From positions 89,247 through 153,246 of the forward strand of contig JAKAHD010000001.1 of assembly GCA_021815205.1 (NCBI GenBank): 64,000 nt of DNA, given 5' to 3'. The position numbers and the translations under genes are program-made. The notes under the pieces are model-generated. The model had not been told where the DNA came from. It was given only the letters and a program-made list of their open reading frames with translations, and did not search any database. The DNA is from a bacterium (GTDB lineage Bacteria; Patescibacteriota; Minisyncoccia; UBA6257; GWB1-50-10). How positions within the stretch are numbered: the first letter of the stretch is position 1; every line of letters starts with the position of its first letter. Of this stretch, positions 3,176 to 30,568 are shown piece by piece.

Positions 3176-4278
3176 ACATGAAATTCAAAGCGCGCAAGGG
3201 GAACCCCGATTACGTATTCATCGCGTTTCTTGTTATCCTCGTCGTGTTCGGGCTCGTGATGCTCATGAGCGCCTCATCCGATCTTGGGAGAGCAAATTTC
3301 GGCGACAGTTTTTATTTTCTGAAACATCAGATCTTCTACGGGCTCATTCCGGGGATCATCGGTTTCTTTTTCGCGTATTTCTTTGAGTATCGGATATGGG
3401 AGAAGATAAGCCTCCCCGCACTGCTCGTGAGTATCCTTTTTCTTCTTCTTGTATTCAGTCCTCTGGGATTTCGCGCCCTGGGCGCCGAACGGTGGGTCTC
3501 GATCGGCGGCATACAGTTCCAGCCCGGCGAGCTTGTGAAACTCACCTTCATCGTGTACATGGCGGCGTGGATGGGAAAGAAAAGAGCGCGGGGGAAAAAA
3601 CTGGGTGAAGGATTCTTGCCGATGCTCATGCTCCTCGGCGCGGTATTGGTGCCGCTTGTGCTGCAGCCCGCGACGACCACGGCGGGCCTTATTTTTGCGT
3701 CCGTGCTCACCATGTACTTTATGAGCGGCGCGCGCGTGAAGTACGTTGCCGCGACGATCGCGCTTGCCGCGGTCGGGTTCGTATCACTCGTTATGATTAC
3801 GCCGTATCGCATGGAGCGTATTTTAGGATTTATTCATCCGCAGGCGGATCCGCTCGGGAAGACCTACCAGATCAATCAGACGCTCATGGCAGTCGGATCG
3901 GGAGGCGTGTGGGGCGTAGGGTACGGCCGTTCGACCACGAAGCTCGGCGCTCTTCCCGAACCGATGGGGGATTCCATCTTCGCCGTGATCGGCGAGGAGC
4001 TCGGTTTCGCGGGATCTATAGCGCTCATCCTTTTCTTTTTACTCTTCGTATGGCGGGCGTTCATAATCGCAAAGAAGACCTCCGACGGCTTCGCGCGGCT
4101 TATGGTTGTGGGATTTGGAACGCTTATCGGCATTCAGGCGTTCGTGCATATCGGCGCGAATACCGGAGTGATTCCGCTTACCGGCGTACCGCTTCCTTTC
4201 ATCAGTTACGGCGGTACGGCGCTTGCGGTTTTTTTGACCATGAGCGGCATTATTGCTACGATTTCGAGAGGAAGATGA
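3172..4278 (+). CDS. ftsW: SEDS-family peptidoglycan glycosyltransferase FtsW
   Basis: 368 aa, about 10 TM helices, FtsW/RodA/SpoVE signature regions (PEPMGDSIFAVIGEELGF, SYGGTA). Position between mraY and murG supports ftsW. Confidence 0.8.
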   Translation: MNMKFKARKGNPDYVFIAFLVILVVFGLVMLMSASSDLGRANFGDSFYFLKHQIFYGLIPGIIGFFFAYFFEYRIWEKISLPALLVSILFLLLVFSPLGFRALGAERWVSIGGIQFQPGELVKLTFIVYMAAWMGKKRARGKKLGEGFLPMLMLLGAVLVPLVLQPATTTAGLIFASVLTMYFMSGARVKYVAATIALAAVGFVSLVMITPYRMERILGFIHPQADPLGKTYQINQTLMAVGSGGVWGVGYGRSTTKLGALPEPMGDSIFAVIGEELGFAGSIALILFFLLFVWRAFIIAKKTSDGFARLMVVGFGTLIGIQAFVHIGANTGVIPLTGVPLPFISYGGTALAVFLTMSGIIATISRGR

Positions 4279-19155: not shown

Positions 19156-21342
19156 CTATTCGCGCAGGCGGGGTTCGACGCGTTTAAGGAGCACGGCGTT
19201 CGTGGCCACAATAATGGAAGAAGCGGACATAAGGAGCGCGGCGATCTCCGGCCGCAAGGTCCAGCCAAGGGGGTGGTAGAACACTCCAGCAGCAACGGGA
19301 ATGGCCAGCATGTTATAAATCGCTGCCCAAAAAAGATTTTGCTTCATTTTAACGACCGTCGCCTTGCTCAAACGAATCGCGGCTACGATGTCGAATGGAT
19401 CAGATTTCATGAGGACGATGTTCCCGGTTTCAATCGCAACGTCGGTGCCCGCGCCGATCGCGATGCCGATATCGGCTTGCGCCAAGGCGGGCGCATCGTT
19501 CACGCCGTCGCCCACCATTGCTACGAACTTCTTCTCGTCCTGCAGTTTTTTTACGTAACTCGCCTTGTCCTCTGGGAGCACTTCCGCGAACACACGGTCG
19601 ATGCCGAGCTCTTTGCTCACCGCTTCCGCAACTTTTGCGTGGTCGCCGGTGATCATCACAACTTCGATGCCCATATTTTTCAATTCCTCGATGCTCTTTT
19701 TCGCGCTCGGGCGCACCGTATCCGCGACCGCGATGACGCCGGCAATCTTGCCATCAATGGCGAGCATGCTCAAGGTTTTGCCCTCTCCCGCGAGCCGGTC
19801 GATCGTCGCCCGGGCGGTTTCAAGATTTACACCGCTCGCATTCATAAGCTTCTCGTTGCCCGCAAGGATGCGTTTACCGTCGATCACGGCCTTTAAACCA
19901 TATCCAGCAACCGATTCGAACTGCGAGGACTTGACAAGCCGAATGTTTTTATTTGCCGCCTCATCGACGATGGCTTTTGCGATCGGGTGGTTCGAGCCGA
20001 TTTCGATGCTCGCCTCATATTTCAAAATTTCTTCTTCCTTCACGCTATTCAAGGGCGCGATATCAGTCACCTTCGGCTTGCCGAGGGTTAACGTTCCCGT
20101 CTTGTCCAGCACGATCGCCGTAAGACGGGAGGTATTTTCGAGTGTTGCTGCGTCCTTAATTAAAATGTTGTGCTTTGCGCCGATGCCGGTGCCGACTGCT
20201 ACCGCCGTCGGTGTGGCAAGCCCCAAGGCGTCGGGACATGCAATAACGACTGTTGCCACGGCAAAGGTTAACGCGGTAAGCAAGTTCGCACTGCCGATAA
20301 AATACCAACCGAGGAATGCGGCGATGCCGGAACCAATCGCAACAATCACCAGCCGTCCCGCCCAAATATCAGCAATGCGCTGACCGGGAGCTTTGGAATT
20401 CTGGGCGGTCTCCACCATTTTGATGATTTGGGCAAGCACGGTTTCCGAGCCGACTTGTGTGGCTTTGAATTGAATCGTGCCGGTGAGATTGACCGAACCG
20501 CCCACCACCTTGTCGCCGATCGTCTTTGAGATCGGTATAGATTCGCCCGTCACCAACGATTCGTCAATTGATGTTTCGCCCGAGGATATTTCGCCGTCCA
20601 CCGGAACCTTGTCGCCGGGTCGGAGTACCACACTATCGCCATGAATAATTTCCGCGCTCGGAATAGTAATCTCTTTGCCGTCCCGAATCACATTTGCTTT
20701 GGGCGGCACTAGATCAAAGAGGGCGCGCAAGGCATCCGAGGTGCCGCGGCGTGATTTCATCTCCATCCAGTGGCCAAACAAGACGAACGTAACCAAGAGC
20801 GCAGCGGCTTCAAAAAATGTTTCTTCGCCGCCGACGAGTGTGAGTAGAACGCTGAAAAGATAGGCCGCCAAAACGCCGGTCGCGATTAAGACCGCCATAT
20901 TAAGCTTCTTTGCTTTGAGCGAGTAGTAGGTGCCGGTAATAAAGATTGAACCAGTCCAAAAAACGATTGGTGTCGTGAGAATTAAGAGCAACCAATTGAT
21001 TGGAATGGGGGTTGGCAAATGTAACTTAAAAATAGTTGTGCCAACCGGCGAATACAGGAAAATAGGAACGGAGAGGAAAAGTGAAATGAAAAACCGGCGG
21101 CGCATATCCCTTTCCATCTGTTTGGCGATTGCTGGGTTGGTCATGGCCGCTTCATGATCGGTATGGCTCATTTTTTGCATGTTGTGACCAGTATGAGCAT
21201 CAACTTCCATCGGAATTAAATCCATACCACATCCGGGGCATTTGCCGGGCGCATTTTTAATGACTTCCGGGTGCATGGGGCAGGTGTAGAGAGTTTCTTT
21301 TGAATTGTGGTGATTATGGTTATTCATATTATTTATTTTCAA
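19156..21342 (-). CDS. copA: heavy-metal (Cu+-type) translocating P1B-type ATPase with a CPD transmembrane motif
   Basis: DKTGTLT, MVGDGVNDAPAL, TGES, and the Cu(I)-class TM signatures YN (AAIYNML) and MSASS. The TM6 motif reads IACPDALGLATP (codons tgt ccc gac), not CPC. N-terminal CPMHPEV...CPGCGM Cys4 metal-binding motif. Confidence 0.85.
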   Translation of the reverse strand: MKINNMNNHNHHNSKETLYTCPMHPEVIKNAPGKCPGCGMDLIPMEVDAHTGHNMQKMSHTDHEAAMTNPAIAKQMERDMRRRFFISLFLSVPIFLYSPVGTTIFKLHLPTPIPINWLLLILTTPIVFWTGSIFITGTYYSLKAKKLNMAVLIATGVLAAYLFSVLLTLVGGEETFFEAAALLVTFVLFGHWMEMKSRRGTSDALRALFDLVPPKANVIRDGKEITIPSAEIIHGDSVVLRPGDKVPVDGEISSGETSIDESLVTGESIPISKTIGDKVVGGSVNLTGTIQFKATQVGSETVLAQIIKMVETAQNSKAPGQRIADIWAGRLVIVAIGSGIAAFLGWYFIGSANLLTALTFAVATVVIACPDALGLATPTAVAVGTGIGAKHNILIKDAATLENTSRLTAIVLDKTGTLTLGKPKVTDIAPLNSVKEEEILKYEASIEIGSNHPIAKAIVDEAANKNIRLVKSSQFESVAGYGLKAVIDGKRILAGNEKLMNASGVNLETARATIDRLAGEGKTLSMLAIDGKIAGVIAVADTVRPSAKKSIEELKNMGIEVVMITGDHAKVAEAVSKELGIDRVFAEVLPEDKASYVKKLQDEKKFVAMVGDGVNDAPALAQADIGIAIGAGTDVAIETGNIVLMKSDPFDIVAAIRLSKATVVKMKQNLFWAAIYNMLAIPVAAGVFYHPLGWTLRPEIAALLMSASSIIVATNAVLLKRVEPRLRE

Positions 21343-21535
21343 TAGCTTGGTTTGTGATCTCTAAATTGCAACCGTGATGTTCTTTGCACCATGTTTCGCA
21401 CTTTTTCGCTTGCGTTTTCTCTTTATAATGCAAACCGCACTCTGGACACTTATGTGATTCCTCCTCGACTTTTTCGTTATGATTTTTGTGATCCATATAA
21501 TTTATATTTGTTTTACAGATTTTAACTTTTTCCAA
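21329..21535 (-). CDS. small zinc-ribbon protein (novel family) overlapping the copA start
   Basis: HKCPECGLHYKEKTQAKKCETWCKEHHGCNLEITNQA is homologous to the N-terminus of the 49345-51162 protein (YQCEACGFQY...KCEAWCKEHKSCNTEITAHA). Confidence 0.5.
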   Translation of the reverse strand: MEKVKICKTNINYMDHKNHNEKVEEESHKCPECGLHYKEKTQAKKCETWCKEHHGCNLEITNQAIENK

Positions 21536-22227
21536 GTAAGATGTTCGTAAATACTCGACCAGATAAAACCAAAGCTGAAAGCGAATAAAAGTTCTTCTAA
21601 TGGAATTCCTAATATCAAAATACCCGAGATAGCCTTGAGGTTCCAGACCTGTTCCACATACCCAGGATAAAGAGCAATGAGCGTTAAGAAATATACAAAA
21701 TAAATCCCTAAGAATATAAAAGCGCTTGCGATCATTTTCTTTTTAAGATCAGGTCTGCAATACCAAGAGAAAAAGCCGCCGACAAGCATTGCTATAATTG
21801 CCGAATAGATAGGATTAAGCGAAGTTGTAAAAAAGATCACAAAAAAGATAAATGGGGACGAGAGAATAGAGAGCAAGTGGTAGTTGTGGTGGATCAAATG
21901 ACGTTCATATGTTTCTATTCGCTCATGCGAAGTGCGATGGATACACTCATAGATCGCTACCGCGATACCACCGATAGCAAAAGAGAAAATGAAACTTTCA
22001 ATATCAAAACCAGTTCGGTGAGCTAAGTCAAAAAGTGATGGTGGATTCCAGTAGGTTGGAACAAAAAGTGGCTCTGTAAATCCAAAAAGTGCAGTCCATA
22101 AGCTCACCCAAAGCATTTCTTTTTTACTCTCTCTGTTTTTTAGAAGTACGTAAATAACTACCCAGATTGCAACAAGGATTAAGCTCCATAAAAACCAAGC
22201 AAGTTGTGGTTCGTGTGTTGAGTTCAT
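21502..22227 (-). CDS. hypothetical polytopic membrane protein
   Basis: 241 aa, 6-7 TM helices, overlaps neighbours (operon). Confidence 0.45.
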   Translation of the reverse strand: MNSTHEPQLAWFLWSLILVAIWVVIYVLLKNRESKKEMLWVSLWTALFGFTEPLFVPTYWNPPSLFDLAHRTGFDIESFIFSFAIGGIAVAIYECIHRTSHERIETYERHLIHHNYHLLSILSSPFIFFVIFFTTSLNPIYSAIIAMLVGGFFSWYCRPDLKKKMIASAFIFLGIYFVYFLTLIALYPGYVEQVWNLKAISGILILGIPLEELLFAFSFGFIWSSIYEHLTWKKLKSVKQI

Positions 22228-22595
22228 ACGTTTTTAGTTAGATATTTCTCGCCAAAGACAAGAGCAAGTGCCATAAACAAAAGTCCGGAATGCTCAAGCG
22301 CATCGAAAGGACTTGCAATAACGATCATGACGCCGACAAGCCAGATAAACGCCCATAAGCCCACACGACGTGTAGTAATACCAAAAAAGAGGAGCAAAGC
22401 GACGATACCGTCGTTCAAACCGATCACAAACGGCACAAATAGCTCCGGGCGGATTGGCAATAGAGGCAAGATAAACGAGTTGTTTATCAGCTCGATGAAT
22501 TCCGATGGTGCAAAAAACGCCGTTAGAGAATTAGCAAGGAAGATGACGCCTAAGCCAAAGCGAATCAAGAAGTTATAATTTAGAAATTTATTCAC
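22224..22595 (-). CDS. DoxX-like membrane protein
   Basis: 123 aa, 4 TM helices. The FGLGVIFLANSLTAFFAP pattern resembles the DoxX family. Confidence 0.4.
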   Translation of the reverse strand: MNKFLNYNFLIRFGLGVIFLANSLTAFFAPSEFIELINNSFILPLLPIRPELFVPFVIGLNDGIVALLLFFGITTRRVGLWAFIWLVGVMIVIASPFDALEHSGLLFMALALVFGEKYLTKNV

Positions 22596-22596
22596 G

Positions 22597-23127
22597 TTAT
22601 TTCAAACCCCATTTGAAAGATCGTTCTGGAATGCCGCCAATATCTTTGATTTTAAGTTCGACGGTTTGAGGCATTGGTTGGATTGCGTTAAAAATCAACA
22701 CTCCCTCCCGATGGTGGCCGCCGGGCCCGGCACCCTCCCAAGACAGGGGCTTATACACGTTACCTTTATCATCGACCAGCGTCACGATTTGTACAGGATC
22801 TTGATCAAGTTCGACCGAATGTGTGTTCATACCAATATCAAATTTCCACTCCGTCGATTGTGATGAAAGATTAAGCGGCGTAACTACGACGGTAACATTT
22901 GCTTGCTCGTCAGTCCTCGTCTCCCATTTTTGTTTCACGCCTGATGTTGAAGAGTTGTCTTGGGGCGGACGAGAGCTGGGTTTAGGATTATACAAGACCA
23001 GAGAAACTCCCACGAACACCAATGCCAATACGGATATTGTGATTACTTTTTTATTCATCCCGTTAGGGGTTCCCATGATTGATTTTTTGAGATATTGGTA
23101 ATTGCGACTATTTTTCAATTTTTCCAC
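22597..23127 (-). CDS. hypothetical secreted/membrane-anchored protein
   Basis: The track start is GTG. The likely start is the internal ATG (MNKKVITISVLALVFVGVSLVLY signal anchor), preceded by 'cccctaacggg'. Confidence 0.45.
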   Translation of the reverse strand: MEKLKNSRNYQYLKKSIMGTPNGMNKKVITISVLALVFVGVSLVLYNPKPSSRPPQDNSSTSGVKQKWETRTDEQANVTVVVTPLNLSSQSTEWKFDIGMNTHSVELDQDPVQIVTLVDDKGNVYKPLSWEGAGPGGHHREGVLIFNAIQPMPQTVELKIKDIGGIPERSFKWGLK

Positions 23128-23603
23128 CCGTCAGAGTTTTTTAGGTTTCTCACAGAGGCGGATCCGTCTCGGGCGGAGCATTTGATGATTTTATTGCTGA
23201 TAAATAAAATGCCGAATATGTTAAACGCAAGACCGATCCAGAAAATCTTGACTTGATATTGAGCTACAAACGTAGCAAGCCCCGTAACTCCGAGAATGGG
23301 AACCACATTCACAAGATAATGAGCGCAACAGGAAATCATAGAGGCCGTCGAAGTCGTACCTGATACGCCGACAACCTTGCTCATGCCAAGCCCCCCATGC
23401 ACTAAGGCCCTAAGATGCTGATATAAACCGATCTGAACACCGAAACCAATCGCCAAGCTCGTGATGAAATACCAGTATGTGCCGAATTGATCTTGAGCAA
23501 AGCTCCATCCGGAGACGAGCGTCAAGACCGCGAAGTACACACCAAGCAAGATCGCACTTGCAAGTGTCCCATATAATATTGCCTTTGCGTAAGTGTTTGT
23601 CAT
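23115..23603 (-). CDS. hypothetical membrane protein
   Basis: 162 aa, about 4 TM helices. Confidence 0.4.
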   Translation of the reverse strand: MTNTYAKAILYGTLASAILLGVYFAVLTLVSGWSFAQDQFGTYWYFITSLAIGFGVQIGLYQHLRALVHGGLGMSKVVGVSGTTSTASMISCCAHYLVNVVPILGVTGLATFVAQYQVKIFWIGLAFNIFGILFISNKIIKCSARDGSASVRNLKNSDGWKN

Positions 23604-23605
23604 GG

Positions 23606-23917
23606 TTACTTTTTGATATAGCTTTCCGGGTCTTTCTCAAACTGACTCCGGCAATGATCCGAACAAAAGACATACTCCTTGTCTTTGTAGGTGAAGGTAA
23701 TGCTGTCGCTTGCCCGCATACCGCACACCGGATCCCGCAAAAGCTTCTTTGATGGGATTTTTTTGAATTTGTTGAAGAATGATGTAAGCATAGATTTATC
23801 CCCCACACCTCCTGAGGGGTTTAGTGCCTTAATGGCAACACCCATGGCCGGGATGATCTTTTTTGTTTTTGCCATCTTTATCTTCGCCCTCTCCATTGGT
23901 AACCGATTTTTCCTCAT
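23606..23917 (-). CDS. YHS (TRASH-like) domain protein; start uncertain
   Basis: DPVCGMRASDSITFTYKDKEYVFCSDHCRSQFEKDP is the YHS metal-binding signature. An internal start (MLTSFF..., about 23791) would remove the overlap with the next gene. Confidence 0.6.
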   Translation of the reverse strand: MRKNRLPMERAKIKMAKTKKIIPAMGVAIKALNPSGGVGDKSMLTSFFNKFKKIPSKKLLRDPVCGMRASDSITFTYKDKEYVFCSDHCRSQFEKDPESYIKK

Positions 23918-24158
23918 CGGAATGTTTATGCGATCGACCCATCATAAAGAAGTGGGCTATGACCATTATGGCAACTCCACCGATAATGACCCACGTCGGA
24001 GCCCCAAATGCTCTGCCTCCGAGTCCGAGAATGACGATTAACAATAAGGGCGCCACACAGCACACCATCATTGTCCACATCATCCAATTCCCGTCTTTTT
24101 GATCGTGATTATGCATGGCGATTAATAGTTTAATAATAACCAGATTATCAACCCTCAC
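23829..24158 (-). CDS. DUF2933-like small membrane protein with C-terminal HGCCH
   Basis: VCCVAPLLLIVILGLGG helix pair and C-terminal HPGHGCCH. Confidence 0.4.
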   Translation of the reverse strand: MRVDNLVIIKLLIAMHNHDQKDGNWMMWTMMVCCVAPLLLIVILGLGGRAFGAPTWVIIGGVAIMVIAHFFMMGRSHKHSDEEKSVTNGEGEDKDGKNKKDHPGHGCCH

Positions 24159-24360
24159 GTTCTAACTGCCTGCGATACAAGGCGCATACTCCGGCCGAGA
24201 TGGAGATGAGAGTAAGCACAATTGCGTCATTGAAGCAGTGCTGTTGCGTGAAGCCGAAAATGGTGCCGTTCTGTCCGGCAAGCCACGCCCCAATGAGCGC
24301 AAGTACCCCCCAAATACCAGTAACAATCGAGACCCCGTGAATGAATGTGGATTTTTTCAT
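24148..24360 (-). CDS. small 2-TM membrane protein
   Basis: 70 aa hydrophobic ORF in operon. Confidence 0.3.
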   Translation of the reverse strand: MKKSTFIHGVSIVTGIWGVLALIGAWLAGQNGTIFGFTQQHCFNDAIVLTLISISAGVCALYRRQLEREG

Positions 24361-24366
24361 AGGTTT

Positions 24367-24648
24367 TTATTTATTGGAAAGGGTATATATCCTGATCAAT
24401 TCTTTAATTGCTTTTTGATCTTCACTTTTGCTCTGCATTTGATGTTTGACATGCGAGCGCAAGTGATTTTCAAGAAGAAAGCCGTCAAGACTCTTAAGCG
24501 ACCTTTGAATGGAGAGGGATTGTTCCAACAGCGTTGGGCAATACACCTCTTTCTCAATGGCCTTAATAAGACCATCAAACTGACCGCGAAGAATCCTCGC
24601 CCGATGGAGGGCGCGTCCTTTTATTTTCTGATCTACTCCGTGTTGCAT
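24367..24648 (-). CDS. CsoR/RcnR/FrmR-family metal-sensing transcriptional repressor
   Basis: 93 aa all-helical DUF156-type sequence. Ligand fingerprint positions read His3-Cys37-His62-His66 (MQH..., VYCPTLL, ENHLRSHV). Confidence 0.7.
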   Translation of the reverse strand: MQHGVDQKIKGRALHRARILRGQFDGLIKAIEKEVYCPTLLEQSLSIQRSLKSLDGFLLENHLRSHVKHQMQSKSEDQKAIKELIRIYTLSNK

Positions 24649-24690
24649 GTAGGTAACGCATTAGTGATTTTATCGACCTCTCTAGGTAGG

Positions 24691-24735
24691 GTATACCCCT
24701 ATGCCCTATTTGTCAAATCGTGCTTGTGGATAATC
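24691..24735 (-). promoter_or_regulatory. candidate promoter/operator of the csoR-like operon, shared with 28313-28368
   Basis: 'gtatacccctatgccctatttgtcaa-N12-ttgtggataa'. In gene orientation it contains TTGACA (-35-like) followed by a GC box 'aatagggcataggggtata'. Near-identical 45-bp motif at 28313-28368. Confidence 0.45.
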
Positions 24736-25710
24736 TTATATGCCACACCCGTCCTGCTGGCGCTGTGGCGCTGGGGCTGTTCCACCTGTATCTACACCGC
24801 ATCCGCTCCCGCCTCTCTCTTGTCGCGTTTGGGGGACTTGAGCGGCAATTCTTGCAAATCCGGAACCGCTTGAATATTCCGCGCTAAGAAGCATTTGCGG
24901 AGTTACACTTTTTACATCAATACCTTTTATTTTTAGGTATTGTGCAATGGTCTCGTATTGATCCGGGAACCAGGCTCTGTTGGCCGTTATGGCCGCATTC
25001 CACATCTCTTCCCCTGTTCTCCCTTGCGATGCCAGGTATTCAAGAAGCCCGAGCATTGCCATGCCGTGATTGCAATCCGGGAAATACGTTGAATTATTGC
25101 AGCAGGGCCGGTAAATTCCTTTCGCGATCTTCTCCACAAGCGCCTGCTGATCTGACGTGAGAGGGGCCAAGGCGTGCTTGTCGTAGTGATCCATCACCGA
25201 CCCCGTAGTAACCGTCCAACCGCCGACCGATGCCATGTTGGTCGGTCCGCCGTAGCGCACGTCCATAATCGGGCCGGTCTCCAAAACCGGGTTTTTATTT
25301 GCCAGACCATAAGCCCAGAGCAAGTTCAGCTCTGTCACTTGAGAAAGCTTGGCGGGATTGATAGTGCCATTCGCAATCAAGGCGGCAAGCATTTTCTTTT
25401 CTGTTTCTAAGGGCAGGATTTTTCCTCCGTCAACCAGGGTTGCCTGGCCGTTTTGCGAAGCCGCATTTTCTGCCGTCTGCGTCTCCGGGGAGCGATTCTC
25501 GTTGTTATAGATCATAGCTCCCGCAAGCATGGCTCCCGCAATGACAATGGCAATCGGGATCATATATCTGTTGCCGAACTCTTTAGGTTTCTCCTGTCTT
25601 GATCCCTCCTGTATCTCGTATTCCGTTTCGTGTTCCGTCCCATTAGAAATTTTCGTATCGGTGAGATTTTCATTTTTTTTCTTATCCATATTTTTATACC
25701 CGTTACCCAT
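24736..25710 (-). CDS. secreted/membrane-anchored protein carrying a novel Cys-rich domain (YRPCCNNSTYFPDCNHG ... GGSGCGV C-terminus)
   Basis: TM/signal MIPIAIVIAGAMLAGAMIY, then an about 250-aa domain homologous to the C-terminal domain of the 49345-51162 protein. Start may be the internal MDKKK. Confidence 0.6.
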   Translation of the reverse strand: MGNGYKNMDKKKNENLTDTKISNGTEHETEYEIQEGSRQEKPKEFGNRYMIPIAIVIAGAMLAGAMIYNNENRSPETQTAENAASQNGQATLVDGGKILPLETEKKMLAALIANGTINPAKLSQVTELNLLWAYGLANKNPVLETGPIMDVRYGGPTNMASVGGWTVTTGSVMDHYDKHALAPLTSDQQALVEKIAKGIYRPCCNNSTYFPDCNHGMAMLGLLEYLASQGRTGEEMWNAAITANRAWFPDQYETIAQYLKIKGIDVKSVTPQMLLSAEYSSGSGFARIAAQVPQTRQERGGSGCGVDTGGTAPAPQRQQDGCGI

Positions 25711-25721
25711 TCAGTATTGAT

Positions 25722-25790
25722 TGGATTTCTAACGGGACAAGTGTTTTTATCCCGTGAGAAGCAGGTCGCAATGCGACCGCGACTTCTCAT
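25722..25790. promoter_or_regulatory. inverted-repeat element in the 5' region of the 24736-25710 gene
   Basis: 'ttctaacggga-N13-tcccgtgagaa' (11-bp half sites, 1 mismatch), then hairpin 'gagaagcaggtcgcaatgcgaccgcgacttctc'. Shares 'agaagcaggtcgc' and 'ttctaacggg' with 27651-27775. Confidence 0.4.
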
Positions 25791-25795
25791 TGGGG

Positions 25796-26041
25796 TTATT
25801 TCTTACAACAATCCGTTAACTTGCTAATAATTTCTTCAATTGACTTTTTTTCGAGAGAACGCTTAGAAGATACGGAAAATCCAACCGCTCTCAACTTCCT
25901 TATTGTTTCTCTTACCCCCAACGATCTCACCTCGTTGAGAATAAGGCGACGCTGTTCGCATTTTTCACAGTGAGGTATATGAAGCGCCTTCGCAATCTTC
26001 CTCACCGTATCGCCGAGTCTAAGTTGCCGTTTCTTGCCCAT
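25796..26041 (-). CDS. small hypothetical protein with CxxC and C-terminal CC
   Basis: 81 aa: HCEKCEQRR...DCCKK. Basic, possibly nucleic-acid or metal binding. Confidence 0.35.
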   Translation of the reverse strand: MGKKRQLRLGDTVRKIAKALHIPHCEKCEQRRLILNEVRSLGVRETIRKLRAVGFSVSSKRSLEKKSIEEIISKLTDCCKK

Positions 26042-26042
26042 G

Positions 26043-26708
26043 TTATTGTTTGCTTAATTCCTGAATTTTACCGAAGAGCATGTCATTCGCTATTGCCATG
26101 TTCGGGTCATCGAATACGAATCTCACCATCCCCTCTTTATCAACCACGATATAGGTATGGCCTGGCAGTGAGCCGCGATGCATTGAGGAATTTGTAGTCA
26201 ACATGCCAAGCTCTCTCGAGGCGTTCGCACCTCCGTCAAACATGGTGGTTGCCTTCGCAAGCTCCGGCATCTTGGCTATTGCCGTCTGCCAGTCTCTCGC
26301 GGAATCGGTTACAACGGATATTGCTTGAATCTCTCCGCTCTTGAATCTTTGGTCGCTCCCGAATGATGCCATCTGATTCCAGCACGCCGGATAACACATA
26401 AGGCCCTCGTTGAAGAACAGAACGGTGTATTTGCCTCTGAAGTCTGCCGAGGTGTATATTTTTCCATCCTTATCAGTCAGTTGGATATTTGGCAATGGTT
26501 TTCCTATAAGGGAATTCAGTTGCTCGGTATTGGGGGCCCCCGGCGATCCATGCATGGTATCAGTGGCGGATGTTTGATTGGCGTTTTGCGGCGAACTCTT
26601 CATAAGGAGATATCCCAAGCTCAGCGCCACGACCGCAATGATGGTGATCGTGAGCCAAGGAGTTTTTTGATTGTAGTTATTTTTATTCATCCCGTTAGAA
26701 GTTTTCAT
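26043..26708 (-). CDS. secreted thioredoxin-fold protein with CxxxC motif (Sco/redoxin-like)
   Basis: Signal anchor. FRGKYTVLFFNEGLMCYPAC resembles the Trx-fold active-site region, with CxxxC spacing as in Sco1/SenC. The likely start MNKNNYNQKTPW... is preceded by 'acttctaacggg'. Confidence 0.5.
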   Translation of the reverse strand: MKTSNGMNKNNYNQKTPWLTITIIAVVALSLGYLLMKSSPQNANQTSATDTMHGSPGAPNTEQLNSLIGKPLPNIQLTDKDGKIYTSADFRGKYTVLFFNEGLMCYPACWNQMASFGSDQRFKSGEIQAISVVTDSARDWQTAIAKMPELAKATTMFDGGANASRELGMLTTNSSMHRGSLPGHTYIVVDKEGMVRFVFDDPNMAIANDMLFGKIQELSKQ

Positions 26709-26796
26709 GATTATTTTTTTGTTTTTTTATTTTGGCTAGCGAAGAGCGAAATGAAAATTTATTTCCATTTCGTCCGAGCGAAGACGAAACAAAAGA

Positions 26797-27648
26797 CTAT
26801 TGTCTTTTATATTGTTTAATGAACACATACGAAACGTACGCGACTATTCCAATGAAGAGAAGCGCCCAAACGTATTCCGGAATCAACGTTACCAATCCGT
26901 TGATTGCGTCCAAGAACTTGGCATTCCACAGATTTATTTGCAATTGATACTCCGAATGTACGAATAACGTATTGCTGAACGCCAAATACGTTATGTAGCC
27001 GCCCATCAAGAGAAATATCAATCCGGAAATGAGCTCCGAGACGGTAATGTGCCAGCTCCAGCTCCCGATTCTCATCCCCACCGTTTTCTTGGCGTTCGTG
27101 AATCGTTCTGTCAGATTTACTTTGTCGAGGAACGCCGCAATGATAAAGAGCGGCAGGGTCATACCTACGACATAGGCCAAGGTATACAACGCGCCCCACA
27201 GAATGGTGCCGCTTGCAACGGACAGCGCGAGCACACCGGCGAGCACCGGCGCACAGCAGGTAGTGGCAATAGCCGAGAAGATACCGAGAATATAGATCGA
27301 GGACACATGCCGCTTCATGCCGTCACGAACGGAGGTCGGGGTGGTGAACTTCTTGCCAAAGAGCATTGAGAGTCCCAACGCCATCAGGAAAATTCCGCCA
27401 ACGGTGAAAATTATGTTGTGGTATTTACTGAACAACTGTGCCAAGAAAGAGGCTCCAAGTCCGATTGGCAAGAAGACCGTCGCTACTCCCAAGAAGAAGA
27501 CAAAAGTCATGAAGAATATTTTGTATTTTTCTTTGAAGATGTTTCCCAAGTAGGACGGTAAGAGGACGGTAATACAGCATGGGGCAAAGAGCGCGGCAAC
27601 CCCCGCCACGAACGCCGCTATGAGTGATGTCCCTACAAGTAATTCCAT
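26797..27648 (-). CDS. DsbD/CcdA-like transmembrane thiol-disulfide transfer protein
   Basis: 283 aa, about 8 TM helices, paired membrane cysteines (FAPCCITVLLPSYLG and IATTCCAPVLAG). Start codon directly preceded by 'gcgacctgcttctaacgga'. Confidence 0.5.
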   Translation of the reverse strand: MELLVGTSLIAAFVAGVAALFAPCCITVLLPSYLGNIFKEKYKIFFMTFVFFLGVATVFLPIGLGASFLAQLFSKYHNIIFTVGGIFLMALGLSMLFGKKFTTPTSVRDGMKRHVSSIYILGIFSAIATTCCAPVLAGVLALSVASGTILWGALYTLAYVVGMTLPLFIIAAFLDKVNLTERFTNAKKTVGMRIGSWSWHITVSELISGLIFLLMGGYITYLAFSNTLFVHSEYQLQINLWNAKFLDAINGLVTLIPEYVWALLFIGIVAYVSYVFIKQYKRQ

Positions 27649-27650
27649 TC

Positions 27651-27775
27651 CGTTAGAAGCAGGTCGCGATCAGCCGACCCTGCTTAATGATTAAGTTTGT
27701 GGATTCTCGACCCGCTTTCATATCGACGTTCTTTCTCTTTAGAGAAATCGTGATCGCGGCTTCTAACGGGATCCA
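27651..27775. repeat. MITE-like element with about 18-bp inverted ends between ccdA-like gene and upstream gene
   Basis: Left arm 'ccgttagaagcaggtcgcgatc', right arm 'gatcgcggcttctaacggg'. Internal hairpin aagcagg/cctgctt. Confidence 0.5.
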
Positions 27776-27885
27776 TATAGTTTTTTGCATAGGTATTATT
27801 TGATGCGAGTTAGTGAATAACAAAAATATCCTTTTTGAGAGGATATTGAAACAGCACGAAAAAGCGTATCGCTTAATGCGTGCTG

Positions 27886-28296
27886 TTAGTGCAAAGAGGG
27901 ACTAAGCTCAAATAGAGAAAGCCACGAGGTAATTTTCTGCTCACCGCCTAAAGAGTGAAGCGTCCCCTCTCGCCGCCGCTCTTGCAATAGTTCCGGTTTC
28001 GGAAGCAGTACATTTTTATACCATAGAACTATCGAAACCGAAGCAAGAAGCAGGGACACGATCAATGAAAGCCAGCCGGAGATCGGCGGCACCACGGTTG
28101 TCGTAAGCGTTTGAAAAGCGGAGACATGATGCAAAGTCATGTCCATGATGCTTGCGGGACAGGCCGTTCCGTCTATGGCCGAGGCAATACAACCGTCGCT
28201 TGAGCCACCCATCATCGCATGCTCAAAAAGCGAAAAACCAAAAACACCTATTCCGACAAAGCTCATTATTAGGAGTAGTGACGCAAGATATTTCAT
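27886..28296 (-). CDS. hypothetical membrane/secreted Cys-containing protein (first gene of second metal operon)
   Basis: 136 aa. N-terminal TM, central Cys/His cluster (DGCIASAIDGTACPASIMDMTLHH), C-terminal TM. Confidence 0.4.
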   Translation of the reverse strand: MKYLASLLLIMSFVGIGVFGFSLFEHAMMGGSSDGCIASAIDGTACPASIMDMTLHHVSAFQTLTTTVVPPISGWLSLIVSLLLASVSIVLWYKNVLLPKPELLQERRREGTLHSLGGEQKITSWLSLFELSPSLH

Positions 28297-28312
28297 GGGA
28301 TTACAAGATGAA

Positions 28313-28368
28313 TATATACCCCCATACCCTATTGGTCAAGTTAAACCATTGTGGATAACAACAAGGCA
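28313..28368 (-). promoter_or_regulatory. candidate promoter/operator of second metal operon (paralogous to 24691-24735)
   Basis: 'atatacccccataccctattggtcaa-N12-ttgtggataa'. In gene orientation TTGACC...gggggTATATA then ATG 17 nt later. Confidence 0.45.
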
Positions 28369-28384
28369 AGGAAAGATTATTAAC

Positions 28385-28420
28385 GCTTTTGCATTTGCTG
28401 CGGGACTTGGATTCGAACGT
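28385..28420 (-). repeat. direct duplicate of tRNA-Gln 3' end plus 15-nt downstream flank (att-like)
   Basis: 'cgcttttgcatttgctgcgggacttggattcgaac' is identical at 28385-28420 and 28563-28598. The first copy lacks the rest of the tRNA. Confidence 0.7.
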
Positions 28421-28576
28421 CGTCCGCCTAAGGCGGACTCCTTGAAACCCATCGGTTTCAATACTTCCGCCACGGGGAAACTCCCGTTTCCCCGACCCCT
28501 TTCCCGGTTCGAATCCACGCCCAAGAAATGCTAAAGCGATATACCTTTTGAGTATAGTATATCGCTTTTGCATTTG

Positions 28577-28647
28577 CTGCGGGACTTGGATTCGAACCAA
28601 GATGACATGATTCAGAGTCATGTATCCTACCATTAGATGATCCCGCA
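28577..28647 (-). tRNA. tRNA-Gln (anticodon CUG)
   Basis: Cloverleaf reads UGCGGGA/UCCCGCA acceptor with U1-A72 and G73 (as in bacterial tRNA-Gln). D-arm AUCU-AAUGGUA-GGAU, anticodon arm CAUGA-CUCUGAA-UCAUG, T-arm CUUGG-UUCGAAU-CCAAG. No encoded CCA. Confidence 0.8.
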
Positions 28648-28689
28648 AGTGCGGACTTATCATATCAAGGAAGAAGAGACGATTCAACT

Positions 28690-28770
28690 CGAAATGTAAA
28701 CCCCCACACCATAAGCATAAGCCTATGGTGTGGGGGTAAACCGCCGTCAGTTGCTTGACGGCGGAGATTT
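28690..28770 (-). terminator. tandem hairpins downstream of the Cys-repeat protein gene
   Basis: 17-bp stem 'taaacccccacaccata...tatggtgtgggggttta' and 10-bp GC stem 'ccgccgtcag-ttgc-ttgacggcgg' with adjacent T-run. Confidence 0.45.
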
Positions 28771-28777
28771 TGGTGGG

Positions 28778-30568
28778 TTATTGGGTGAGAATGTTTCCTA
28801 GGCTTTGCGCGAATGTCCGGAATGCGCCTAAGAGGTTTCCTCCAGAAGATGGCGCAGGAGACGGCGGCGTCATGCCGGCCGGAGGCATCTGGTTCATTGG
28901 CGGTATCTGACTTGCGGGCGGTTGTCCTTGCGGAGGCATCTGCCCCTGCGGAGGTTGTCCGTCTGAAGGAAGTTTTCCGTTCGGCGGGAATCGTCCCTGA
29001 AACTCTTGCATCATCTTTCGCAGATTGCTCTCATCGCCTTGACCCCCCCGATGATTATCTTTACCATCTTGCGGCATCATCTGAAGTTGTTGTTGATTTT
29101 GAAACTGCCCTCGCTCACCGCCCTGCCCTTCGAAGGGCGGCATCTGGCCTTGATTAGGTTGTCCGTTTGGCGGCATTTGTCCGCCAGGGAGGTTGCCTTC
29201 CTGCCCATTCATCATTGGACCGCCATTCGGAAACTTCCCATTCGGCATCTGCCCCTTAAAGGGAATCCCTTCAGGGGTAAGCTGACCTCCTCCTTGTTGC
29301 TCCCCTTGATGCATCTGCCGTATTGTTCCGGGACCTCCCTCTCCTTGCGCGCCTTGAGGAGGTATCATCTGCTCAAAACATTGGCGCATTTTTTCGCCGA
29401 TGCCCTGCGACGCCATCATCGTGCCGCTTTCCAGTTTTTGCATTATGTCGCTTCCCAACGCGTTCTTGAGGCAGTCGAGTACCGCAGGCGGCGCCTGTTC
29501 GAGTGATTGCCGCATCATCTGTCTTCCCTGTTCCATCTTCCGAAGGTCTTCCGGCGGTATCATGCCGTTATCCTTCGCAAACTGGAAACAGGTTTGTTGG
29601 TTTTGAGGATCCTTGCAAAACGTCTCGCACGCGTCTTTGCCGACACATCCGCCCGGACCCTTCCCTCCCGTCTTTTGCGCCATCTCGGCATCCTTTTCCG
29701 TCATGAAGCCCGCGGCCACCGCGAATTTCGTACACTCGTTCACGTGCGCGGGGTCGGCGCAATATTGATCACACGCTTCCTTCCCTTGGCACGCAGGCGG
29801 CTTCACGCCCGCCTGGAGCGCCTTCATCATTCCCTGCGACTGCTCCGCTTCCTTCGGCGTCATAAACCCAGCCTCTTTCGCGAACGTTATGCACTGGAGC
29901 ATGTGGTCGGCCGATGCGCTACAGTAGGTGTTGCACGAATCGCGTCCTCGACAGGGCGGCGGCGTAATACCCTTGTCAATCGCCGTAAGCACTTTCTCGG
30001 CGTTCTGGAGTTCTTCTCCTTTTAAAAATCCTGCCGCCTTGCCGAATGTGATGCACTCCTTCATGTGCGAAGGCTCGCTGCAATAGGTATCGCACGCGTC
30101 TTTGCTCTTGCACGCGGGCGGCTTCACGCCGCTTGCGATCGCCGCTTGTATCCGTTTTGCCTGCTCGAGCCCGCCGGGCGGCGTGATGCCCGTCTTCTCC
30201 GCAAACGCAAGGCATTCATTGATGTGATCAATGTTCGAACAATATGTCTTGCAGGAACCGAGGGACGTGCACCCGCCGGGACCCTGGAGCGATTTCCGCG
30301 CAAGCTCCTCGGCGACGTTCACCTCGTGCTCCGACATTAAGTTGTGGGCCTTCGCAAACGCAAGACACGCATCTGTGTGCGAGGCATCCGCGCAGTATGT
30401 TCTGCATGAGTCTTTACTCGAACAATTTCCGAGCTCGGCAATCGGATATTGGAGCGAGGCGAAAGGATTCGGTCCTGCAACCGTTTGCGCCCGAGCGATG
30501 TGCATGATCACGCCCGCGATCGTTATCCCTGTAGCAAGAATGGCGACCGTGAATAATTTCGTTCTCAT
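28778..30568 (-). CDS. secreted protein with six tandem Cys4(His) repeats and a Met/Gln/Pro/Gly-rich C-terminal tail (novel; putative metal-binding)
   Basis: Signal peptide. Six about 45-50-aa repeats of C-x2-[KR][DE][SA]C-x-[TQ][YF]C-x3-H-x3-C-x2-FA-x2-G. Then about 250 aa of low complexity with MM/MPP/QMPP motifs. Confidence 0.6.
   Translation of the reverse strand: MRTKLFTVAILATGITIAGVIMHIARAQTVAGPNPFASLQYPIAELGNCSSKDSCRTYCADASHTDACLAFAKAHNLMSEHEVNVAEELARKSLQGPGGCTSLGSCKTYCSNIDHINECLAFAEKTGITPPGGLEQAKRIQAAIASGVKPPACKSKDACDTYCSEPSHMKECITFGKAAGFLKGEELQNAEKVLTAIDKGITPPPCRGRDSCNTYCSASADHMLQCITFAKEAGFMTPKEAEQSQGMMKALQAGVKPPACQGKEACDQYCADPAHVNECTKFAVAAGFMTEKDAEMAQKTGGKGPGGCVGKDACETFCKDPQNQQTCFQFAKDNGMIPPEDLRKMEQGRQMMRQSLEQAPPAVLDCLKNALGSDIMQKLESGTMMASQGIGEKMRQCFEQMIPPQGAQGEGGPGTIRQMHQGEQQGGGQLTPEGIPFKGQMPNGKFPNGGPMMNGQEGNLPGGQMPPNGQPNQGQMPPFEGQGGERGQFQNQQQLQMMPQDGKDNHRGGQGDESNLRKMMQEFQGRFPPNGKLPSDGQPPQGQMPPQGQPPASQIPPMNQMPPAGMTPPSPAPSSGGNLLGAFRTFAQSLGNILTQ

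Follow-up and report, generated by a model that had tools for sequence, protein, structure and literature searches.

Introduction

Integrative elements that enter the 3' ends of transfer RNA (tRNA) and transfer-messenger RNA (tmRNA) genes, and their derivatives lacking an integrase, the cis-mobilizable elements (CIMEs) of the integrative and conjugative elements (ICEs) of Streptococcus, insert in the ends of tRNA, tmRNA or protein genes. They supply a replacement gene end that keeps the gene intact, leave the native end as a direct repeat, accrete in tandem by repeated insertion, and have non-autonomous derivatives. A locus resembling such an insertion was analyzed here in a 64-kb stretch of Patescibacteria DNA, hereafter the window (contig JAKAHD010000001.1 of assembly GCA_021815205.1, positions 89,247–153,246), in which the 3' end of a tRNA-Gln gene is present as two exact 35-nt copies. 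We consider it likely that these copies flank a member of a small non-coding insertion family of Patescibacteria, which lodges in gene ends and brings its own replacement end. The family is widespread in Patescibacteria and apparently undescribed, and full-text literature searches returned no described equivalent of such elements. It shares with integrative elements and CIMEs all the properties listed above, but is 10–100 times smaller and non-coding, and no integrase was found in any member. One conserved core serves dozens of unrelated targets instead of one attB, and it is accompanied by a target-matched inverted segment, many hairpins, and strand-asymmetric loops.

Insertion sequences of the IS200/IS605 group and their miniature derivatives, the palindrome-associated transposable elements (PATEs), resemble the family in their strand-specific hairpins, which suggest single-stranded DNA (ssDNA), and in their small non-autonomous forms. 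Their target or cleavage site is recognized by pairing with a guide just 5' of a hairpin, and here a target-complementary segment lies just 5' of a core hairpin designated H3. The IS200/IS605 guides are, however, 4–5 nt long and fixed for each insertion sequence, whereas those of the family are 8–20 nt long and differ with the target. IS200/IS605 elements neither carry nor duplicate gene ends, while the family has gene ends of 15–73 nt twice. Another likeness is to sites acting as folded ssDNA, namely integron attC, the attP of CTX phage, the G4 origin, and ssiA, whose function depends on hairpins of one strand and which, like the core, are conserved as Watson–Crick covariation rather than as sequence. 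A hairpin stem mimics the chromosomal target in CTX phage, and phage ssDNA origins contain GNA/GNRA mini-hairpins (PMC13037366); both features have counterparts in the family. Unlike integron attC, the family lacks the R'' (RYYYAAC) and R' (GTTRRRY) core sites, and its targets are neither dif nor attI; GAAC/GTTC occurs at element ends only with tRNA T-loop targets and is absent in protein-gene targets. The family is not known to be associated with IntI or a Rep gene or to depend on Xer, and it is far smaller than ssDNA replicons.

MITEs (transposable elements of miniature size with inverted repeats), REPINs, Correia elements, and Rickettsia palindromic elements are likewise small structured non-coding repeats of compact genomes, sometimes located within genes. 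The family differs from them in having no element-specific terminal inverted repeats and an apparently low copy number, and its flanking repeats end at the gene end and can differ synonymously, instead of being short target-site duplications of fixed length. Group I and II introns, with their internal guide sequence (IGS) and exon-binding sites (EBS), and the bridge RNA of IS110 similarly place a conserved scaffold beside a variable segment complementary to the insertion site, so that base pairing appears to determine the choice of target. As opposed to these systems, the family has no intron catalytic domains, as judged from the lack of Rfam matches, no IS110 recombinase, and no sign of a scaffold acting as RNA, and its gene end is duplicated and not spliced.

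Results

The repeated tRNA-Gln 3' end and the element between its copies

The 35-mer CGCTTTTGCATTTGCTGCGGGACTTGGATTCGAAC was found exactly twice in the window on plus-strand search, at 28384–28418 and 28563–28597, and such a match was absent from all 100 dinucleotide-preserving shuffles. Read in the tRNA sense, it comprises the final 22 nt of tRNA-Gln, from the T-loop to the 3' end, followed by 13 nt of flank, and the identity stretches to 38 nt at the cost of one mismatch. An earlier reading made from the letters alone (the sequence-only reading) had described this duplication together with three hairpins between the copies. Both were recovered, the hairpins at 28422–28438, 28442–28461, and 28473–28494 (z = −8.7 against shuffles). 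Its repeat length of 35 held good, but its coordinates were off by one, and the flank measures 13 nt instead of 15. Further copies of the 35-mer, for which it had proposed a search, were not detected in the window, even with 3 mismatches or with half-repeats. A third copy of this 3' end with its flank, inverted and diverged, was located at 28506–28544. It forms with the genuine tRNA 3' end a hairpin of about 40 bp with a 12-nt loop (DNA fold z = −8.8); its other possible partner is the distal repeat copy, in which case the three hairpins are enclosed. The element was divided into the following parts, all on the minus strand and given in the tRNA sense.

28576–28647, minus strand: intact tRNA-Gln(CUG), CCA not encoded (ARAGORN; Rfam RF00005, 60.6 bits, E = 5.8e-12)
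28563–28597, minus strand: left repeat copy, consisting of 22 nt of tRNA (T-loop to discriminator plus one base) and the first 13 nt of the spacer (exact 35-mer)
28526–28575, minus strand: spacer hairpin S directly after the tRNA, with a 19-bp stem (28557–28575/28526–28544; 95% complementary) and a 12-nt loop (28545–28556) (z = −8.8)
28506–28525, minus strand: segment immediately 5' of the core, inverted and complementary to the T-loop, to the T-stem's 3' strand, and to part of the acceptor strand (inverted repeats, folds)
28436–28507, minus strand: conserved 72-nt core, consisting of a purine tract and GGGGTC, hairpin H3 (28473–28494, GGGA loop), GTGGCGGAAG, and hairpin H2 (28442–28461) (model R1, 93.8 bits, E ~3e-25)
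28419–28438, minus strand: variable third hairpin GTCCGCC/GGCGGAC (28422–28438) and CGAC, joining the core to the right repeat copy (fold)
28384–28418, minus strand: right repeat copy, i.e., the displaced tRNA 3' end (22 nt) and the same 13 nt as at the spacer start (exact 35-mer)

The window element is a canonical, high-scoring family member, a non-coding insertion of about 180 bases. The covariance model R1, described below, gave one strong match in the window, and the runner-up (16.4 bits) overlaps the same element. By analogy with the family, the left repeat copy would be the element-borne gene end that completes tRNA-Gln. The segment at 28506–28525 can pair with either repeat copy, and the "T-loop-like" GGTTCGAATCC at 28506–28516 belongs to the inverted third copy. 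A consensus scan called no terminator at the tRNA-Gln spacer hairpin (28526–28575); the corresponding spacers of other members are terminator-like, with a clear A-tract, a hairpin, and a T-tract. The position of the variable hairpin is occupied in other members by a hairpin of differing sequence, often a GCGAAGC mini-hairpin. The window is an outlier in one respect: the right copy lacks CCA and continues not into native flank but into the 13 nt that open the spacer, and a repeat running 13 nt beyond the tRNA end was found in only 1 of 40 tRNA-associated members. Probably the right copy opens a further tandem unit that was cut short at 28383/28384, the point at which the low-GC metal genes set in, because the period of a tandem array at another locus (L238) consists of gene end, spacer, inverted segment, and core.

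Two candidates for the content of this region were rejected. A second tRNA, pseudo-tRNA, suppressor tRNA, or tmRNA between the repeats had no ARAGORN or Rfam support on either strand, and the overlapping open reading frames (ORFs) at 28139–28534 (plus strand) and 28301–28687 (minus strand) were regarded as spurious.

Recurrence of the core at many gene ends

A metagenome scan with the pattern GGGGTCGGG-N12-14-CCCGTGKNGGAA retrieved the core at 120 or more metagenome loci, of which 120 were listed (individual loci are given as L numbers), and the same core is also present in 3 GTDB Patescibacteria genomes. R1 was built as a covariance model from 15 ungapped cores, and its use was limited to search and alignment. 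It produced 109 matches in 100 sources, 8 of which contained two copies within a few kb; the surroundings of 100 other tRNA-Gln loci, 681 kb in all, yielded 4. The inner hairpins of the window element recur in L052 and L053 with compensatory changes, and tandem arrays were found at L238, L053, and L152.

The core recurs at many different targets. ARAGORN placed a same-strand tRNA 12–90 nt upstream of it in 67 of the 120 listed loci, and the target tRNAs represent more than 30 anticodon types, the matches listed including Gln, Arg, Ala, Gly, Leu, Tyr, Val, Glu, His, Ile, Lys, Thr, Asp, Ser, Asn, and Pro. The core lies at the 3' end of a same-strand protein gene in another 19 loci. In 10 it borders, on the outside, the 5' end of a protein gene on the opposite strand (dnaK, fusA, rplK, a GTPase, and others); rplL and rpsI are also among the protein targets. 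Among the 24 remaining loci, 12 are near contig edges and 12 have no clear target, some being at tmRNA-like ends. Relative to the element strand, the body of the target gene invariably lies 5', and the targets share no motif.

The order of parts is the same in every informative case. The intact gene end is followed by the spacer and by a segment that is the inverted complement of where this gene end starts; then come the core, the other copy of the gene end, and the native flank. The elements are non-coding, of about 130–250 bp and occasionally 1.6 kb, with a spacer that is usually a terminator-like hairpin opening with an A-run, and a core made of two hairpins at invariant positions plus optional variable hairpins. 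The element-borne gene-end copy corresponds to the last 15–75 nt of the target gene. Of 126 core occurrences, 87 gave a repeat call, and 60 were kept after filters for a genuine flanking repeat. Its length ranges from 12 to 73 nt: tRNA targets have 14–28 nt, and protein genes up to 73 nt. The commonest tRNA repeat is 15 nt (positions 59–73), or 18 nt with CCA, and for 33 of 40 tRNA units the end of the left copy is no more than 2 nt away from that of the tRNA. The inverted segment (8–20 nt) is complementary to whichever gene end is upstream, as evaluated on 58 helices (mean 14 bp) in comparison with shuffled controls, and in 51 of the 60 units its match to the left copy, with bases upstream of the repeat counted in, is better than that to the right copy. 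This segment, the only end-related inverted repeat, matches the local target gene and changes with the target. The 1.6-kb version (L222, 1535–3200) contains ORFs of 136 and 207 aa, neither with a Pfam domain, between tRNA-Gln and the inverted segment, core, and repeat, so the spacer can carry cargo. A distal-repeat search for larger autonomous versions, extending up to 4 kb upstream, gave only this locus.

Insertion polymorphism and foreign gene ends

At tRNA-Gln the family is an insertion, polymorphic for presence and absence across Patescibacteria. A conserved native flank directly follows the single tRNA-Gln in the uninserted loci L039, L085, L035, L096, and L042, and the same flank follows the last copy of the 3' end in L053 (+338 nt), L079 (+202 nt), L060 (+682 nt), and L222 (+1587 nt). 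The comparison of relatives proposed by the sequence-only reading thus brought out an indel polymorphism and not a fixed structural feature. CCA is encoded in 36 of 99 single-copy tRNA-Gln genes, as against 1 of 16 functional copies at filled sites, a scarcity that fits a left copy supplied by the element.

The protein-gene targets allowed the origin of the two copies to be traced. The copies of the dnaK start in L124 differ at 9 of 18 codons (7 synonymous, 2 non-synonymous) and the two copies in L137 at 10 of 15 codons (9 synonymous, 1 non-synonymous), the junction codon being one of the non-synonymous differences in both. As the differences are mostly synonymous, both copies at these loci descend from functional genes of different lineages; the two gene-end copies of an element can hence derive from different lineages. 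The copy attached to the gene body in L137 is AT-rich, and the gene body and the displaced copy are GC-rich. The join lies within a short segment common to both copies, the one that is matched by the inverted complement. R1 provides a marker of horizontal exchange among lineages at conserved genes.

Structure of the core and its strand

Covariation was evaluated by pair counting on a hand-set structure after realignment to R1, as RNAalifold on a MAFFT alignment mis-registered H2. In the realigned set 96.7% of cells were paired as compared with 79.1% in shuffles, and none of 500 shuffles reached so high a value. Double-change cells numbered 247, compensatory changes affected 14 of the 16 pairs, and the signal collapsed in slid controls; hairpin H2 lies wholly outside the retrieval pattern. 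Wobble-type pairs in H3 and H2 are rare and nearly strand-symmetric (G.U 25, A.C 21), and the helix that the inverted segment forms with the gene end contains 15 G.T and 6 A.C. The H3 loop has four bases in 69 cases; 49 of these are GNRA when read on the element strand, and the opposite strand gives no GNRA. Likewise, GCGAAGC was counted 37 times on the element strand but was absent from its complement. As DNA, GCGNAGC folds into an extraordinarily stable mini-hairpin that is much less stable in RNA form, and such mini-hairpins are known at ssDNA priming sites such as the G4 origin and ssiA (PMC13037366). Watson–Crick covariation together with loops on one strand suggests, on circumstantial grounds, that the element strand folds as single-stranded DNA. 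Rfam 15 gave only the tRNA and a chance miRNA match (E = 0.72) for window positions 27000–30000 at E ≤ 1, and the cores of 6 loci had no Rfam match at the gathering threshold.

Discussion

Proposed mode of insertion

In the architecture shown here the element sits inside the end of its target gene, where its own gene-end copy keeps the gene intact and the native end, displaced downstream, persists as the second repeat copy, still attached to the native flank. Entry may take place by recombination within the short segment common to the element-borne and chromosomal gene ends. The intermediate is probably folded ssDNA of the element strand, with a hairpin stem that would mimic the target or guide the element to it, and the core may be a recognition or priming module for a protein encoded elsewhere. 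As the family shows, even the very small and streamlined genomes of Patescibacteria harbor a selfish element, with harm avoided through the replacement gene end and a terminator or upstream region.

A bolder version of this proposal is possible, though we hold it only tentatively: the elements may be programmable and guide-bearing, with an ssDNA scaffold of about 70 nt and a target-pairing segment of 8–20 nt that direct a host or helper enzyme to place the element in any matching sequence; survival in tiny genomes would come from carrying along the displaced gene piece. If target choice is set by the complementary segment, the family would be a natural model of guided DNA insertion with no linked protein gene, and its partner enzyme would be worth finding. 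Should the programmable-guide reading be true, it would constitute a new class of nucleic-acid-guided insertion system in Patescibacteria.

Several observations weigh against a mobile insertion family. No transposase, recombinase, or reverse transcriptase was recurrent among 378 ORFs neighboring the 120 listed loci; the clusters of these ORFs were housekeeping only, the commonest being elongation factor G (EF-G; 5 loci), and neither TnpA nor TnpB was found among them. No circular or excised form was seen. The copy number is low for a transposon, with 1 core in the 64-kb window and 4 in 681 kb. The orientation relative to GC skew follows no clear replication-strand rule, being positive in 27 of 38 tRNA cases and 4 of 7 5'-end cases. 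For the window locus itself no empty site was found, as the closest homologues of the neighboring 596-aa protein are at most 58% identical and show no synteny; contigs with the neighboring 136-aa protein came from the same strain only. Core copies with no recognizable flanking repeat or inverted segment, located in the tRNA-Ile/tRNA-Ala spacer of L147 and the tRNA-Lys/tRNA-Leu spacer of L205, would also suit a co-transcribed RNA. The retrieval by exact pattern makes the invariance of GGGGTC and GTGKNGGAA a matter of construction, and three rows of the R1 seed alignment were adjusted by hand.

Alternative explanations

One alternative is that the core is a structured non-coding RNA, either co-transcribed with tRNAs or processed in their manner. 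The inverted segment and the 3' copy would then form an acceptor/T-arm minihelix supplying signals for RNase P, RNase Z, or CCA addition, and the repeat would be functional instead of a by-product of insertion. A junction of several helices, joined by conserved purine-rich strands and bearing GNRA tetraloops on one strand only, would be natural for such a molecule, as would the 70% of listed copies that directly follow tRNA or tmRNA genes of the same orientation and the cores between two tRNA genes in L147 and L205. The slight excess of G.T over A.C in the helix of the inverted segment and gene end points the same way; in the two core hairpins, however, G.U is no commoner than A.C, and the GCGAAGC mini-hairpins favor DNA. 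The same architecture is also found at protein-gene ends, among them opposite-strand 5' ends, and there a helix resembling tRNA would be meaningless; moreover, a terminator-like hairpin usually separates the tRNA from the core. Only insertion explains the synonymous divergence of the copies, and no Rfam family was matched. We therefore judge the RNA reading unlikely as a replacement for the insertion family, though it could be true alongside mobility.

Quite unlikely, in our view, is a retroelement in which a core RNA is reverse transcribed, switches template onto the 3' end of a mature tRNA or mRNA, and enters the homologous gene as cDNA. A reverse transcriptase gene would be expected nearby and none recurs; most left copies lack the CCA that a mature tRNA template should contribute; and the 5' ends of opposite-strand genes are targeted too, where no mRNA 3' end is involved. 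On the other hand, the end of the left copy coincides exactly with the 3' end of the mature tRNA, and the spacer usually begins with an A-run. Methylation of adenosine 58 (m1A58) blocks reverse transcriptase on retroviral primer tRNAs, and the commonest tRNA repeat (15 nt, or 18 nt with CCA) is the span that would be copied before that position. The 59–73 span may be a coincidence or a clue to an RNA step. Against a retroelement, protein-gene repeats reach 73 nt, and the repeat start at 59/60 may simply be the end of the core motif GTGAGAT or of the T-loop copy.

The sequence-only reading had left a choice between an att-like scar and a mini-element, and it is the mini-element that stood, in view of the conserved family at many gene ends and its polymorphism at tRNA-Gln. 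The att scar would be what remained when an element with a tyrosine or serine integrase, perhaps the carrier of the metal island, was lost from the tRNA-Gln 3' end, leaving attL and attR 144 bp apart. A tRNA 3' end is indeed the classical attB, the repeat spans the T-loop to the 3' end, GC content falls to the left of the locus, and large serine recombinase genes abut tRNA-Gln in the Patescibacteria loci L090, L093, L106, and L118. These recombinase loci, however, have no core, and the DNA between the repeats is a covarying conserved core found at more than 30 other targets, not a random remnant. Integrase elements use one or a few attB sites, whereas this core follows more than 30 tRNA species as well as protein-gene ends. 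The supposed signature of a site-specific integrase was not borne out by any gene, as no integrase was identified in the surveyed part of the window (13–36 kb, with the annotated genes at 13–31 kb) or near the approximately 120 listed family members. Delivery of the metal island by the original integration, also suggested in that reading, finds no support either, since the island (19156–28296) lies outside the repeat pair and has no repeat copy at its far end. We thus regard the att scar as very unlikely, and the insertion family accounts for partial copies of tRNA 3' ends, which tools for island prediction would mistake for the att sites of islands since lost. A phage or plasmid origin was rejected as well: IMG/VR contained no match to the tRNA 3' end or to the core pattern, and blastn of phage and plasmid collections was null.

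A local replication error, in which the template is switched twice at palindromes and the tRNA 3' end is thereby triplicated, no mobile element taking part, would reproduce the direct, inverted, and direct copies with hairpin turns known from fold-back or inverted triplication, but it is extremely improbable, as the same conserved 72-nt second turn lies at 120 or more unrelated loci and the synonymous divergence of the copies would stay unexplained.

Other inserts at tRNA-Gln and the surroundings of the element

The 22-nt 3' end of tRNA-Gln is common to more than 119 Patescibacteria species genomes, and about 15 of them contain a second copy of it 65–350 nt downstream. The inserts at this place are varied, and the tRNA-Gln 3' end is therefore a general insertion hot spot. 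L111, L079, and L067 have a second core type (TTGGATTCGAAAGNCGGA, CGGGGTCGNGA, CTTAG, GTGACCGAAT) with the same layout of inverted segment, core, and 3' copy, and three different units follow tRNA-Gln in tandem in L067. A cassette with an 80-aa GIY-YIG nuclease ORF lies between tRNA-Gln and the copy of its 3' end in L060 (approximately 3325–4010) and L065; L060 contains two exact tandem cassettes with a 341-bp period, each closing with a small hairpin and a tRNA 3' end. L064 and L101 have a pseudo-tRNA-Gln that retains the anticodon arm, T-arm, and 3' end, with the 5' part and D-arm swapped for a shared TTTGGCGGGGTGAAGTAG. The large serine recombinase genes of L090, L093, L106, and L118 are on the opposite strand, with the C-terminal end abutting the tRNA-Gln 3' end, and the recombinase of L093 contains Resolvase, Recombinase, and Zn_ribbon_recom domains. 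Conserved unannotated blocks, such as GGTTATCGCGCACGAGACGCGTCGA and GGCATACCTGCTGAGAGCAGTATTCAAGA (L039, L085, L035, L096, L053, L079, L222), are located directly downstream of the native tRNA-Gln in many Patescibacteria; they have no Rfam match and may be a small RNA or a regulatory site. At L130, a group I intron (476–739; RF00028, 82.7 bits) resides inside an opposite-strand tRNA gene about 160 nt from a hairpin element.

To the left of the window element, positions 19156–28296 hold a copper/metal cluster comprising a P-type ATPase with HMBD, a CsoR-type repressor, a YHS protein, a DsbD-like protein, and a redoxin. The GC content of this cluster is 0.44–0.47, compared with 0.53 to the right of the tRNA, and the cumulative GC skew turns near 15 kb of the window. 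To the right, short imperfect direct repeats (CGGAGGCATCTG and related 48-nt units) were found at 28880–29320 within the gene of the 596-aa protein. This protein is rich in Pro, Gln, and Gly, contains repeated Cys-containing modules, and has no Pfam match but is widespread in Patescibacteria, with 1869 homologues (E ≤ 1e-10). Two back-to-back terminator-like hairpins at 28700–28764, one of the minus strand (stem 17 bp) and one of the plus strand (stem 10 bp), separate the 596-aa gene from the promoter region of tRNA-Gln.

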